Assembly (NCBI GenBank): GCA_002772115.1
Contig: PCRW01000068.1
Location: 1 to 38,183, forward strand
DNA from: Candidatus Moranbacteria bacterium CG23_combo_of_CG06-09_8_20_14_all_35_22
GTDB taxonomy: Bacteria; Patescibacteriota; Minisyncoccia; Moranbacterales; UBA2206
Direction: 5' to 3'
Length of the DNA: 38,183 nucleotides
The position numbers were made by a program, and so were the translations under genes. Shown piece after piece: positions 13,973-17,109 of the stretch. The stretch's first letter is position 1, and each line of letters starts with the position of its first letter. The notes under the pieces were generated by a model. The model was not told the DNA's origin and did not search any database. It saw nothing but the letters and a program-made list of their open reading frames with translations.

Positions 13973-15278
13973 GGATTTCTACTGTTTCTAATTTTGCCAC
14001 TGTTTTAATTATTTTATTTTCTTCCATTTCGTGGACAATTTTTTCGGCGTATTCTTTGGGATTTTCCAAGCCAGTTATTTTGCCAATTTCATGATTAGCA
14101 GAGAAGAAGGTTTCTTCGTTTTGATCAGTGCCTACGCCAATATAAGCGATTTTATTGGCAAAAGGAGCAATTAGCACTGGTTCGCCAGTTTGGGAGAAAA
14201 TCGCGTGGGGAGTCATTTTTGAGGGTCCGTATGCGCGATTAGCACCATTTCGATGGATAATAACTTTTTGATTAAAATGTGTTTCCTCGTCAAAATAGAC
14301 ATGTGGAGCATCATAAAGCAGTTTGGTCGAAACGGATCTAGCGAATATTTTTTCCAGTGCTTTGTGGATTTCGCAAGTTATCAAGGTTCGATTGGCAAAA
14401 CCATAATTTCCGGTGGCACGAAAAGCTGTGTCAATTTTATTTTTGTCATTGATTTGAATTGAGGGTGAAAAAAGTTTGATAAAAAGCAGGATTAATTTTT
14501 GGGAAAAACTCTTTATTTTTCTGGAAGTATAGAGCGAGGCAGTGTAACGGCCAACAATACTTGAACCCGTATGTATAAAAAAAAGATATTGGTTATTTCT
14601 AATTCCCAGGGTTGAAGCGAGGTTTTCATCTAAAATTTCTGATACTCGCATAAGATAAATGAAATGACTGTTGGTTGCTCCAAGAAGCCCAAGGCGAAAT
14701 TTGGCAATCCAAGAAATTATTTTTGGAACGGCATTGGAAATTTCTTGTTTAGATATTTCTTGATTAGCAAAAAAATTACCTTGAGAAAAAGTATTTTCAA
14801 ATTCATTTTTTGTGCAAATTGGGAAAACTCTTTCCAAAGCTTTACTACCGAGTTGAAAAATATCCATTACCATTTCTTTGGAAATTTTTGTGCCAATTAT
14901 TTTTTTGGAAGGGATGTTTTTCTGGAGTTCAGCAAAAAGATTCTTTATATTTTCTTCAGTTAATTCTTTTCCGGCAAGATCAGTCAAAATAACTCGCATT
15001 CCGCAATTAGTGGCGGAATCCAACATTTCCGGGATAATATTTTTTGAAGCAACGACTGCGCCAGTAGGATTTTCTATGTTTGGCTTAGTGTGAGCTTCAC
15101 TAAGAACAGCAATGTCGTGAAAAACATTTTCATTTGCAGCTATTTTTTCAACTGCCTCCAAGACATCACTTTTTTCAAAATTTCTTTCTTCGGAAAACAA
15201 AATAGCCGGTACTTTCATTTTTTCCGTTTGGAAACTTTTTTTGTTTTCAGAAATATTTTCTAAATTATATTTATTCAT
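13962..15278 (-). CDS. Divergent RtcB-family protein (RNA 3'-phosphate ligase fold)
   Basis: It aligns block by block with E. coli RtcB. DIAVLSEAH...NIIPEMLDSATNCGM matches HIAVMPDVH...AIIPAAVGVDIGCGM, and GATNSHF matches GTGNHF. IHTGSSIVGR matches LHSGSRGIGN, and APHVY...HRNGANRA matches CHHNY...TRKGAVSA. SANHEIGK matches SCSHGAGR. Its start overlaps the upstream GT4 stop by 4 nt. Confidence 0.75.
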   Translation of the reverse strand: MNKYNLENISENKKSFQTEKMKVPAILFSEERNFEKSDVLEAVEKIAANENVFHDIAVLSEAHTKPNIENPTGAVVASKNIIPEMLDSATNCGMRVILTDLAGKELTEENIKNLFAELQKNIPSKKIIGTKISKEMVMDIFQLGSKALERVFPICTKNEFENTFSQGNFFANQEISKQEISNAVPKIISWIAKFRLGLLGATNSHFIYLMRVSEILDENLASTLGIRNNQYLFFIHTGSSIVGRYTASLYTSRKIKSFSQKLILLFIKLFSPSIQINDKNKIDTAFRATGNYGFANRTLITCEIHKALEKIFARSVSTKLLYDAPHVYFDEETHFNQKVIIHRNGANRAYGPSKMTPHAIFSQTGEPVLIAPFANKIAYIGVGTDQNEETFFSANHEIGKITGLENPKEYAEKIVHEMEENKIIKTVAKLETVEILSY

Positions 15279-16393
15279 AAAGTCTTATAAATATCTTCAT
15301 AAATTTCAGCAATTTTTTTGATATCAAAATTTTCCTCGCAAAATTTTCGGGCGTTTTTTCCAAGCAAGATTCGCTTTTCTTTATTTTGATATAAATCAAA
15401 AATCGCGTCAGTTAATTGTTGCAAGTTGTCTTTTTCAATTATAACAGAATTATTATTATTGCCCAATTCTTTTAGAATTTCCAGATCCGTTAAAATTATT
15501 GGTTTTTCACAAGCCATTGCCTCAATAACAGCGAGAGGGATATCAAACTTCCCTCGCATATTTTGCACTGGGAAAAGACTGATGTCACAGAGATTATAAA
15601 CTTCTGGCATATCGTATTTGCCATTATCAAAAAAAGAAACTTTCTCTCGAAGATTATTTTTCTTGATTTTTTCCATAACCTTTTCTTTTTTTTGAGCGTC
15701 TTTTTCGTTTTTAATTCGAACTGCTAAAGTTAGCTTGGCCGTGGGAATTTTTTTGGAAATTTCAATGAAACTATCAACGACTAAATCAATCGCTCCAAGA
15801 CGCACATATTCGCCAGAAAAATTTATCACAAAATCATCTTGCGAAATGTTTTTTTCTCGCATAAGCTCTGGATTTTTTTCTTGCAGTTGATATTTTTCTA
15901 GATCAATCCCTGGGTAAACTCTTCTGACATTTTGAAAGCCCAACGAATCCAATTTATTTTTAGCATGATCAGAGTAGGTGATAATGAGATCGGCAAACAT
16001 CAATTTTTTTATATCACAATCTGACCAAAGATCATCACGAAGAGAAGCGATGGTTTGAATTGTTTTAGTATGCTTAGATTTTAAGAAATTTTTAATCAAG
16101 TAGGAATTAAGTTTTGTCGGTGTGAAAAAATAATGATTGATATCAAATTGGCCTTTGGTTTTGAATTGGAAAAGTAGGGCACGCAGTTTTTGGGAAAAAT
16201 TAAAATCCGAAACCTTGGAAGTAGTATAGATATCATTAGAAACAACATTTTCTGGAAGTTCTGGTAAAATTCCCTTGGTCATTAAGTTAATTTCAAAACC
16301 AACTAGGTTTTTGGCTAGATAATAGGCGAAATTTTTAGAACCCTCATCCCAAGGCGGAGCAATCGGTCTTGTTACTAAGAGTATTTTTTTCAT
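15275..16393 (-). CDS. GT4-family (GT-B) glycosyltransferase
   Basis: 372 aa. The C-terminal EX7E-like region is FPVQNMRGKFDIPLAVIEAMACEKPIILTD. It is the first gene of the co-directional operon 16393->10789. Confidence 0.8.
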   Translation of the reverse strand: MKKILLVTRPIAPPWDEGSKNFAYYLAKNLVGFEINLMTKGILPELPENVVSNDIYTTSKVSDFNFSQKLRALLFQFKTKGQFDINHYFFTPTKLNSYLIKNFLKSKHTKTIQTIASLRDDLWSDCDIKKLMFADLIITYSDHAKNKLDSLGFQNVRRVYPGIDLEKYQLQEKNPELMREKNISQDDFVINFSGEYVRLGAIDLVVDSFIEISKKIPTAKLTLAVRIKNEKDAQKKEKVMEKIKKNNLREKVSFFDNGKYDMPEVYNLCDISLFPVQNMRGKFDIPLAVIEAMACEKPIILTDLEILKELGNNNNSVIIEKDNLQQLTDAIFDLYQNKEKRILLGKNARKFCEENFDIKKIAEIYEDIYKTL

Positions 16394-16439
16394 ATTGACA
16401 AATTTTAACTTTTAGTGTAGTTTTTATTTAGCACATTAT

Positions 16440-16745
16440 TAACCCGAGTTCGAAAGGCGAAACACGCATCAATTGTGAGTGGCCGTGCCATTCATTTCAT
16501 TACTGCGGTTTTCGGCTTCAGGACTCAATTTCCCCGAGGGTTGCGTAACTATAACGCGATTTTGGATTAGGTTTCTGTGTTTATGGAAACCAAATGCAAT
16601 AGTTTTTCAATATTATTGCAATAAATATCCGCCCTCGGGCCCCAACATTTTGGCTAGGAGGCTGTTAAAAACGCCTCTGCCTCACTCCTCAGCAGGAGAC
16701 AGTGGTTTCCCTCCTGTTTCCACTTTTCCCTCCTGCTGAGTTTTT
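16440..16745 (-). ncRNA. Structured GC-rich ncRNA, class unconfirmed; best guess is a reduced RNase P RNA on the minus strand
   Basis: An island of about 300 nt, much more GC-rich than its flanks, lies between two CDSs. It has many nested helices: cccgaggg 16533-40 pairs with ccctcggg 16632-39; ggat pairs with atcc around the hairpins ggtttc/gaaacc and tgcaata/tattgca; gcgt pairs with acgc; gaggc pairs with gcctc. On the minus strand, AAUGAAUGG followed by a P2-like 3' strand, and then CGAACUCGGGUUA, resemble RNase P CR-IV and CR-V. A P2/P3/P4-like pseudoknot order is possible. The universal GGAAAGUCC and a P1 helix are not recognisable. The 86-aa ORF at 16479-16739 is judged spurious. Confidence 0.4.
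16688..16745. terminator. Long GC-rich hairpin: candidate intrinsic terminator, or the terminal helix of the ncRNA
   Basis: An 11-bp stem (ctcagcaggag ... ctcctgctgag) encloses an inner agtgg/ccact hairpin. It is followed on the + strand by tttttattttt. On the - strand it begins about 10 nt after the stop of 16750-17109 but has no U-tract. Confidence 0.35.
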
Positions 16746-16749
16746 ATTT

Positions 16750-17109
16750 TTACAAATTTTTATAAATTTCTTTTTTCTCATCTTTCGAAATTACCAAAAT
16801 GGTAATTTTTTTATTTTCGCTCGCGAGAGCCAAATCAGGATTTAGTTGCAAGGCCGAACCTTTTTTAATCTCCGCTTCTCCTTCTTGAATTTTCTTTTTA
16901 TTAGATAGGATTTCCCAATGGAAATTATTTTCATCACTGTGATTTTCAATGATAAAATTAAGCTTGTCAGATTTTGGTTCGGCAAAATATAATACCCACC
17001 AATTTTTTCCAGTATTTTCATTAGATTGTTTTTTTTCAATCCAAGCCAAGGAAGAAGCGCTGAAAATAAAAAAGATTATGGTTGTAAAAATAATTGTTTT
17101 AGATTTCAT
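16750..17109 (-). CDS. Small exported or membrane-anchored hypothetical protein
   Basis: 119 aa. An N-terminal signal/anchor (IIFTTIIFFIFSASSLA) is followed by a domain of about 95 aa. The gene starts 5 nt downstream of the large membrane protein gene. Confidence 0.7.
   Translation of the reverse strand: MKSKTIIFTTIIFFIFSASSLAWIEKKQSNENTGKNWWVLYFAEPKSDKLNFIIENHSDENNFHWEILSNKKKIQEGEAEIKKGSALQLNPDLALASENKKITILVISKDEKKEIYKNL

Follow-up and report, generated by a model that had tools for sequence, protein, structure and literature searches.

What is encoded in a GC-rich, strongly folded spacer between two envelope genes of the same gene array in the ultra-small Candidatus Moranbacteria bacterium CG23_combo_of_CG06-09_8_20_14_all_35_22? 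The window analysed here is a stretch of 38,183 nucleotides (contig PCRW01000068.1 of assembly GCA_002772115.1), and the spacer occupies positions 16394-16749 (356 nt), between the start codon of a gene for a glycosyltransferase (GT) of the GT4 type and the stop codon of a gene for a protein of 119 amino acids (aa). The original prediction, made from the letters of the window, saw in it a structured RNA of uncertain strand, which would be either a strongly reduced RNase P RNA or an unclassified one. Our analysis of the genome (G000; 0.9 Mb, 82 contigs, 94% complete) and its relatives leads to the following answer: with a probability of about 0.65 the spacer is an orphan gene for a non-coding small RNA (sRNA) of ~320 nt on the plus strand, a prediction made from sequence. 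The wider claim, that there is such a gene and that its product is a cis-antisense RNA which uncouples or tunes the glycosyltransferase genes downstream, we would put at even odds. That the plus-strand RNA is actually made is something we infer.

Composition and predicted fold

The spacer was originally described as a GC-rich, highly structured island, and this description stands. The core (16443-16745) has 46.2% GC compared to a genome mean of 34.7% (sd 5.0), and only 1.1% of the 303-nt windows of the genome are as GC-rich; individual coding windows of 100 nt in the vicinity go up to 47% as well. The plus strand folds with -120.2 kcal/mol (z -7.0), a value reached by none of 100 shuffled sequences, and the minus strand with -102.4 kcal/mol (z -3.9). 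Six or more helices had been proposed and at least seven are predicted: H1, the helix closing P2 and the three hairpins inside it, H3, and a terminator with two tiers. The short motifs are also found where they had been placed, i.e. CCCGAG at 16443 and 16533 with CTCGGG at 16634, the promoter boxes TTGACA and TAGTTT 17 nt apart, and a hairpin followed by a T-run, which consists of an 11-bp stem and TTTTTATTTTT at 16741-16751. The parts of the predicted transcription unit, all on the plus strand, are as follows.

16395-16423, plus: predicted sigma-70-type promoter; -35 box TTGACA at 16395-16400, 17 nt, -10 box TAGTTT at 16418-16423; start near 16430
16430-16445, plus: 5' leader, predicted to be unpaired in the minimum free energy structures, running to the first CCCGAG copy (16443-16448)
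16446-16526, plus: H1, a predicted interrupted hairpin of 81 nt with a variable interior
16527-16641, plus: linker AAUUUC and the predicted multibranch domain P2 with three inner hairpins
16533-16540 and 16632-16639, plus: predicted closing helix of P2, CCCGAGGG with CCCUCGGG
16642-16687, plus: conserved core, made of unpaired CCCCAACAUUUUGG, hairpin H3 and linker UCACUC
16652-16681, plus: hairpin H3, GGCUAGGAGGC-UGUUAAAAAC-GCCUCUGCC
16688-16751, plus: predicted intrinsic terminator; 11-bp stem 16688-16698/16730-16740, an inner 5-bp helix and a loop with CCCUCCUG
16741-16751, plus: U-run of the terminator, UUUUUAUUUUU, overlapping the stop codon of the convergent 119-aa gene

The modules of the fold can be compared on the two strands. 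H1 has a predicted free energy of -35.2 kcal/mol on the plus strand versus -24.2 kcal/mol on the minus strand (three G.U pairs), P2 of -40.3 versus -31.8 kcal/mol (five G.U pairs) and H3 of -10.0 versus -8.1 kcal/mol. In this genome all three are thus more stable on the plus strand, because of nine G.U pairs. The predicted terminator hairpin has -22.1 kcal/mol.

Promoter, terminator and strand

The promoter is kept in one species of the same genus (G008) as TTGACA-17-TAGATT, and part of the leader, TTAACCCGAG, is kept there too. A larger sample is provided by the long spacers, defined as those of 120 nt or more, which 17 genomes across the family have at the 119-aa/GT junction. The strict motif TTGAC[AT]-N16-18-TAnnnT is found on the plus strand in 10 of these 17 spacers, with 11 sites in total, and on the minus strand of the same 17 spacers it is not found at all. 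The genomes with promoter boxes belong to at least seven genera. Ten of the 11 sites have TTGACA and one has TTGACT, and the spacing is 17 nt in ten and 16 nt in one. The -10 boxes vary (TAGTTT, TAGATT, TAAATT, TAGTAT, TAGGTT, TACAAT, TATATT, TAGCTT, TAGAAT, TATACT), with T1, A2 and T6 invariant. The same strict motif is found in G000 upstream of tRNA-Lys and of the tRNA-Met pair (3 of 26 tRNAs versus 0.85% of random 150-nt stretches), and one of the sites upstream of tRNAs has TAGAAT as its -10 box.

At the other end, a plus-strand hairpin with a T-run abuts the stop codon of the 119-aa gene in G000, in G008 and in at least eight relatives (loci L029, L031, L032, L035, L041, L067, L072 and L073). 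Viewed from the minus strand the hairpin of G000 has an A-run before it and no U-run after it, so it can stop only plus-strand transcripts; and a terminator placed at the stop codon of the 119-aa gene makes sense only if plus-strand transcription begins inside the spacer. What one would look for in an sRNA gene is therefore found as follows: an own promoter at the level of motifs, an intrinsic terminator on the same strand and, as described below, no conserved coding frame. The stand-alone plus-strand RNA of ~315 nt, antisense to the operon, which was one of the two readings in the original prediction, has in this way gained support as a predicted transcript from the recurrence of promoter and terminator, the strand counts, the stability that depends on G.U pairs, the constraint and the non-coding character of the spacer.

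A few observations concern promoters and their surroundings more generally. The 681-nt spacer of locus L073 (G023:C59) has two tandem promoter-to-terminator units, one with TTGACA-17-TAGAAT and one with TTGACA-16-TATACT, and each unit continues with a structured, GC-rich body and closes with a hairpin and a T-run. An inverted repeat TGATT-N6-AATCA stands immediately upstream of TATTGAC in L029 and L031 (two genera), and a palindrome resembling GGCTTATTTAAGC is found 25-45 nt upstream of the -35 box in seven genomes; both are missing in G000 and G008, and they are possible operator or GT-leader elements. Elsewhere in G000 there are 34 strict promoter motifs with no open reading frame (ORF) in the next 150 nt or more, among them C75:19390 (+), C30:1384 (+), C70:4726 (-) and C53:1205 (-), and many of them have an extended -10 box TGC-TAnnnT. 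Several have a hairpin and a T-run 90-230 nt downstream, and the unit on C75 has 44% GC. We regard these 34 sites as candidates for further orphan transcription units.

Constraint and replacement between two species

The comparison of G000 with G008 requires a neutral level, for which we used the four-fold degenerate sites of three flanking genes, which are 71.5% identical. Against this level the segment 16626-16706 is strongly conserved: 79 of its 81 positions are identical (binomial P 9e-10), and only 2.8% of the 81-nt coding windows are as conserved. The two substitutions in the segment (16648 and 16683) are located in unpaired linkers. The closing helix of P2 and the stems of the terminator are identical in the two species, the changes in the terminator being confined to the unpaired loop. 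At the base of H1 the helix remains paired in both species despite two double changes and a wobble change (GAGUUC/GGACUC versus GAGACU/AGUCUC).

The interior of the RNA behaves differently. The interior of H1 has 23% identity, and G008 has an unrelated 50-nt hairpin in its place; the inner part of P2 has 50% identity. With indels and an identity far below the neutral level these parts must have been replaced and not mutated. Both species form a hairpin at each replaced place. One of the inner hairpins of P2 (GGUUUC.../...GAAACC) is kept in G008 with a shorter loop, and another is swapped for a different hairpin.

Distribution, copy number and coding potential

Homologues were searched for by BLAST over 60 relatives, all 71 genomes of the family and 400 genomes of the phylum; further searches were a pattern scan of GTDB, a metagenome scan by way of the 119-aa protein and a scan of 20 public contigs found by exact protein. 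Apart from G000 the element is found in one congener only, G008, with 81-82% identity over the 3' two thirds, and hence in 2 of the 71 family genomes. The pattern, metagenome and public-contig scans added identical copies of the two variants and a single-nucleotide polymorphism (SNP); the G008-type copy matched by the pattern scan is on MFSE01000020.1, a Candidatus Moranbacteria contig of the Rifle aquifer series. Among the public DNA data in which the locus of G000 is found unchanged are the JGI assemblies 3300005235, 3300005236 and 3300004142 and the runs SRR6240753 and SRR6240782.

Within its own genome the spacer is single-copy, since blastn-short returns the self-match and chance words of at most 18 nt, and the variable part of the G008 element is single-copy in G008. 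In the 400 phylum genomes all the matches are AT-rich and short (22-43 nt), with E 1.7e-4 or weaker, and collections of phages, plasmids and viral contigs contain no match to the spacer. A dispersed repeat of the kind of repetitive extragenic palindromes (REP), bacterial interspersed mosaic elements (BIME) or miniature inverted-repeat transposable elements (MITE) was considered and rejected, every part of the spacer being single-copy.

The spacer has also been searched for proteins. Its six-frame translations, compared with 30 syntenic loci, match only their own copy and that of the congener; without a match in other relatives the spacer is not a decayed gene. An 86-aa ORF starting with GTG (16479-16739) is absent from G008 and has no match in Pfam, and was rejected. 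A shorter frame of 29 aa, from TTG at 16650 to TGA at 16739 (MARRLLKTPLPHSSAGDSGFPPVSTFPSC), is open in both variants, with 27 aa in G008 due to loop indels which sum to 3 nt, and it could in principle specify a small protein. Every difference between G000 and G008 in this frame is non-synonymous (H to Y; FPPV to SLL), the frame has neither an ATG nor a ribosome-binding signal, and it runs through both arms of the terminator hairpin of -22 kcal/mol. No family match comes from the longer 86-aa ORF either. We regard a small protein as very improbable. On the minus strand there is a mini-frame at 16682-16723, after the stop codon of the 119-aa gene, with GUG, 13 codons and AGGAGGG before it; in the congener it has 12 codons and the stop UGA is changed to UAA. 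It is probably due to chance.

RNase P and other known RNAs

The reduced RNase P RNA of the original prediction, read from the minus strand, was suggested by hand-matched short strings resembling CR-IV and CR-V, and no tool has added to these. They find no statistical support, as no RNase P model scores in 16300-16850 at E<=10. The same prediction proposed a check for another rnpB in the genome, and a canonical type-A gene is located at 16157-16478 of contig 64 (G000:C64; RF00010, 133 bits, E 5e-43), which also scores 64.8 bits with the type B model. Bacterial RNase P RNA (RF00010/RF00011) is like the spacer element in its size of ~320 nt and in its multi-helix fold. The spacer is unlike it in failing the covariance models and in not being universal in the family, and the real rnpB is found on contig 64. 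The gene is elsewhere, the spacer gives no match and the element is restricted to 2 of the 71 family genomes; these findings refute the RNase P reading, which keeps practically no probability.

The other classes named for an Rfam scan fare no better. At the gathering score nothing in the window matches, and in the spacer at E<=10 there is only noise, consisting of snoRNA and lncRNA models with 4-28 bits; at E<=0.5 the loci of 11 relatives also give only noise. Transfer-messenger RNA (tmRNA; RF00023), signal recognition particle (SRP) RNA (RF00169/RF01854) and 6S RNA (RF00013) were rejected as they do not match the spacer. ARAGORN finds neither tRNA nor tmRNA in the window, and the tmRNA of the genome is on contig 39 (153 bits). 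An element present in only two species can be neither the essential RNase P RNA nor a universal SRP or 6S RNA. A bacterial Y RNA, considered since there is an RtcB-like gene nearby, has no match among Y-RNA-type Rfam models in the spacer, and the absence of a protein with a TROVE/Ro domain from G000 excludes it.

It should be mentioned separately that the small and large SRP models and the 6S model find nothing anywhere in the G000 genome. With RF00169 no SRP RNA is found in 20 relatives up to the level of the order either, with control genomes positive. In the Moranbacteria order, either the SRP RNA has diverged strongly or the search lost it at the pre-filter.

The genes around the spacer

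The borders of the spacer and the two genes next to it are given here.

16391-16393, minus: start codon (CAT) of the GT4 gene, left border of the spacer
16750-16752, minus: stop codon (TTA) of the 119-aa gene, right border of the spacer
15275-16393, minus: GT4 glycosyltransferase gene (Pfam Glycos_transf_1, E 2e-18), next after the spacer in the operon direction
16750-17109, minus: ORF for the 119-aa signal-anchored protein, convergent with the proposed RNA

The two genes belong to an array of nine co-directional minus-strand genes extending from 21321 down to 10789. Upstream of the spacer are membrane-protein genes and downstream GT4-RtcB-Tmk-Wzx. A motif scan finds no strict minus-strand promoter anywhere inside the array. 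The 119-aa protein matches no family in a Pfam search and has homologues in 57 of 61 family genomes. The two flanking genes do not always share the same history of identity: at loci L024 and L026 the GT protein of G003 and G007 is 86-87% identical to that of the window and the 119-aa protein only 48-51%, and this mismatch gives the junction 16393/16750 the appearance of a boundary of recombination in a variable envelope locus.

As for the machinery of RNA regulation, the genome encodes an RNase III domain (PF14622, 138 bits, G000:C55:11532-11918), and a search of the genome did not find Hfq. Shine-Dalgarno sequences are apparently rarely used: GGAG or GAGG is found at -20..-4 in only ~3% of the genes, counted in a crude gene set of 645 ORFs of at least 150 aa in which the first ATG was taken.

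Origin of the spacer

In 48 of the family loci examined the GT gene comes next after the 119-aa gene, and the length of the spacer between them varies.

25 nt or less: 24 genomes
26-100 nt: 7 genomes
120-681 nt: 17 genomes

Six relatives with a short spacer have an ATGA overlap, in which the stop codon of the 119-aa gene overlaps the ATG of the GT gene, and the long spacers are mutually unrelated in sequence. As far as these loci can tell, the long spacer is the derived state and the ancestral junction was tight. Within the genus, four species without the element have a spacer of 0-44 nt and a fifth has a different insert of 235 nt.

The spacer of G000 is flanked by an imperfect direct repeat of 12 nt, TT[G/T]ACAAATTTT, with one copy at 16395-16406 (TTGACAAATTTT) and one at 16749-16760 (TTTACAAATTTT). 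The right copy coincides with the 3'-terminal codons of the 119-aa gene, and the -35 box TTGACA is part of the left one. Relatives without an insert read CATATTTTACAAATTTTTATAAAT / CATATTTTACAAATTTTT at the junction. The flanking repeat and the sequence of the empty site point to an origin by insertion or duplication, and the spacer probably began in this way at the very end of the 119-aa gene.

The bodies of the long spacers in other genera are not detectably homologous to the element, since a covariance model of the conserved 3' module run over 55 syntenic loci gave only terminator-like matches with E 0.11 or weaker. Sister species in other genera keep the promoter-proximal DNA and have the body replaced (L030/L035, L029/L031, L017/L031). 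One might hypothesize that the junction is a dedicated "RNA slot", in which an outward-facing promoter and a terminator on the same strand are maintained across genera, with the structured RNA that they enclose being exchanged one hairpin at a time, also between sister species. We consider this doubtful. If it were true, strain-specific antisense or regulatory RNAs would be produced at the edge of a recombining glycan locus of the cell envelope, and bacteria of the candidate phyla radiation (CPR) would have a means, not described before, of diversifying the control of surface-glycan genes.

Palindromic mini-elements are seen at the same junction in other genomes of the family. Units of the type TTGTCATTCC...GGAATGACAA and a hairpin GCCCAAGGCGGATCCGCCTTGGGC are distributed over L038, L040, L065 and L072 (3' part) and over L015, L035 and L054. 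In L030 and L035 the hairpin GCCCAAGGCGGATCCGCCTTGGGC is apparently read in frame within an N-terminal extension of the GT gene.

A possible mode of action

The mechanism we propose starts with TTGACA-17-TAGTTT abutting the start codon of the GT gene, which would drive synthesis of an RNA from near 16430. The hairpin and the U-run would end this RNA at 16741-16751 and so stop it before it enters the convergent 119-aa gene. Operon transcripts probably cross the spacer in the opposite direction, as judged from the ancestral coupling of the two genes (ATGA or a spacer of at most 25 nt in 24 of 48 loci) together with the lack of an internal promoter in the array. The plus-strand RNA would be perfectly complementary to the intercistronic segment of the operon mRNA, whatever the sequence of that segment. 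Sense and antisense RNA could then pair, and the duplex could be cleaved by the RNase III of the genome. Cleavage would uncouple or tune GT4-RtcB-Tmk-Wzx relative to the membrane-protein genes upstream. Two things that an RNA of this kind calls for are present, a position on the opposite strand between two co-oriented genes and a double-strand-specific RNase encoded in the genome. The model also explains why promoter and terminator alone are conserved between genera and why the body is replaceable, because sense and antisense sequences change together.

Alternatives and points against the proposed sRNA gene

The same plus-strand RNA could be a base-pairing sRNA acting in trans on distant mRNAs, with the unpaired C-rich GGGCCCCAACA (16637-16647), UUUCCCC (16529-16535) and the terminator loop CCCUCCUG as the contact sites. 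Such an RNA would be supported by the same promoter, terminator and constraint; its most conserved part is an unpaired C-run with a hairpin, and unpaired C-runs of at least four are found in 8 of 11 putative RNAs at the same slot in other genera, although C-runs are not rare at 45% GC. Five conserved segments, scanned for duplexes with 895 start regions, gave nothing above shuffled controls, an anti-Shine-Dalgarno seed (CCUCC motifs) would find few partners when so few genes have the core sequence, and Hfq was not found. The failure of the 3'-module model to find bodies in other genera is not expected for an RNA with conserved targets; non-homologous bodies fit poorly with a conserved-seed function in trans and better with cis-antisense. 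We regard trans action as unlikely. A minus-strand element, i.e. an intercistronic or 5'-leader structure of the operon mRNA which lends stability to the message upstream of it or acts as a control on translation or processing in front of the GT gene, would make the plus-strand signals incidental. The minus strand does fold better than shuffled sequences, also in G008 (z -4.3), and without a strict promoter inside the array minus-strand transcription of the spacer is probable in any case. It matches no known leader or riboswitch family, no minus-strand hairpin is followed by an attenuator-type U-run, and the half of the relatives with a spacer of at most 25 nt do without it. This alternative also leaves the promoter boxes of 10 genomes and the terminators, both confined to the plus strand, unexplained, and three modules of G000 lose 2-11 kcal/mol on the minus strand. 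It seems to us improbable.

The spacer could also be non-functional debris, a lineage-specific insertion at a recombination-prone junction, made up of palindromic inserts such as are scattered through this genome and retained because it does no harm, with signals that are not used. Several observations speak for this. The ancestral junction is tight, the unrelated inserts of 120-680 nt are patchy even within the genus, the spacer has the 12-nt direct repeat on either side, its inner hairpins differ by replacement between the two species (23-50% identity versus 71.5% at neutral sites), and evident dispersed palindromes are present in other spacers at the junction (TTGTCATTCC...GGAATGACAA and GCCCAAGGCGGATCCGCCTTGGGC). 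No part of the spacer is repeated in G000, G008 or the 400 phylum genomes, however, and the 3' core is conserved far above neutral sites. Nor would debris maintain promoter boxes with a 17-nt spacing on one strand across genera, each with a terminator on the same strand. We therefore think that debris, too, is an unlikely explanation.

The preferred reading, a plus-strand sRNA gene, has its own difficulties. The -10 hexamer TAGTTT is weak, with 3 of 6 consensus positions, for which reason a simple consensus scanner misses the promoter, and the promoter is without the TGC extension which is common among the promoters of G000. The left end of the spacer, TTGACA included, resembles a duplicated end of the 119-aa gene, so the -35 box could be partly accidental in this lineage. 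In G008 the two strands fold equally well (-101.2 kcal/mol for plus and -106.4 kcal/mol for minus, the latter being slightly more stable), and over the 17 long spacers the difference between plus and minus folding is not significant (Wilcoxon p 0.17 for energies and 0.06 for z-scores). The sole population SNP, G16696A in the terminator stem (3 of 10 public G000-type contigs), gives A.C on the plus strand and G.U on the minus strand and thus keeps the pairing on the minus strand only, as the minus-strand element would have it. All the collections searched contain only two sequence variants, which makes the covariation anecdotal. Conservation of the 3' block does not stop at the spacer's border but extends over the final 22 codons of the 119-aa gene, with identity at 21 of the 22 third positions, and a recombination tract could therefore account for it instead of selection on the RNA. 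Finally, the antisense model needs co-transcription of the flanking genes across the spacer, which we infer.

Significance and comparison with known systems

The regulatory RNAs of CPR bacteria are essentially uncharted, and our literature searches found no described sRNA for Moranbacteria or Patescibacteria. If the sRNA gene is real, it would be a well-delimited candidate, with promoter, body and terminator, in an envelope-glycan operon of a 0.9-Mb genome whose host has no detectable Hfq and makes almost no use of Shine-Dalgarno sequences. A fixed promoter and terminator around a replaceable body would be an unusual example of the birth and turnover of antisense RNA at a formerly overlapping gene junction. 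The tempting annotation as a reduced RNase P RNA is in any case removed.

GC-rich hairpin blocks between operon genes of an AT-rich genome, with a content that differs between close relatives, are also typical of REP/BIME and REPIN-type inserts, and palindromic elements of this kind do occur in the junction spacers of relatives. The multi-copy dispersal that defines them is absent here, the spacer being single-copy throughout. RsaE/RoxS are C-rich trans-acting sRNAs of Firmicutes, which share with the spacer RNA the unpaired C-runs, a CU-rich terminator loop and an independence of Hfq that is predicted here. Unlike them, the spacer has no Rfam match and no target signal, and its host rarely uses Shine-Dalgarno sequences.

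The closest arrangement of genes is that of GadY in Escherichia coli, a cis-antisense sRNA from the gadX-gadW intergenic region which reportedly directs RNase III processing of the bicistronic mRNA. As with GadY, the spacer would hold a small RNA gene with its own promoter and terminator, opposite the interval between two co-oriented genes; complementarity to the operon transcript is built in and RNase III is encoded in G000. Pairing, cleavage and co-transcription at the spacer are predictions from sequence. The two RNAs have no relation in sequence or structure, and the spacer RNA would be ~3 times longer and far more structured, in a host where Hfq was not found. In its form the spacer RNA also resembles RNAI/RNAII of ColE1 and CopA/CopT of R1, the structured antisense RNAs by which plasmids are controlled. 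It differs from these in being chromosomal, in an array of glycan or envelope genes and outside any replication context, and the plasmid collection contains no match to it. Like them it would have multiple hairpins with GC-rich stems, exposed loops and full complementarity to its target, and like theirs its sequence would be free to drift, with both partners changing together.

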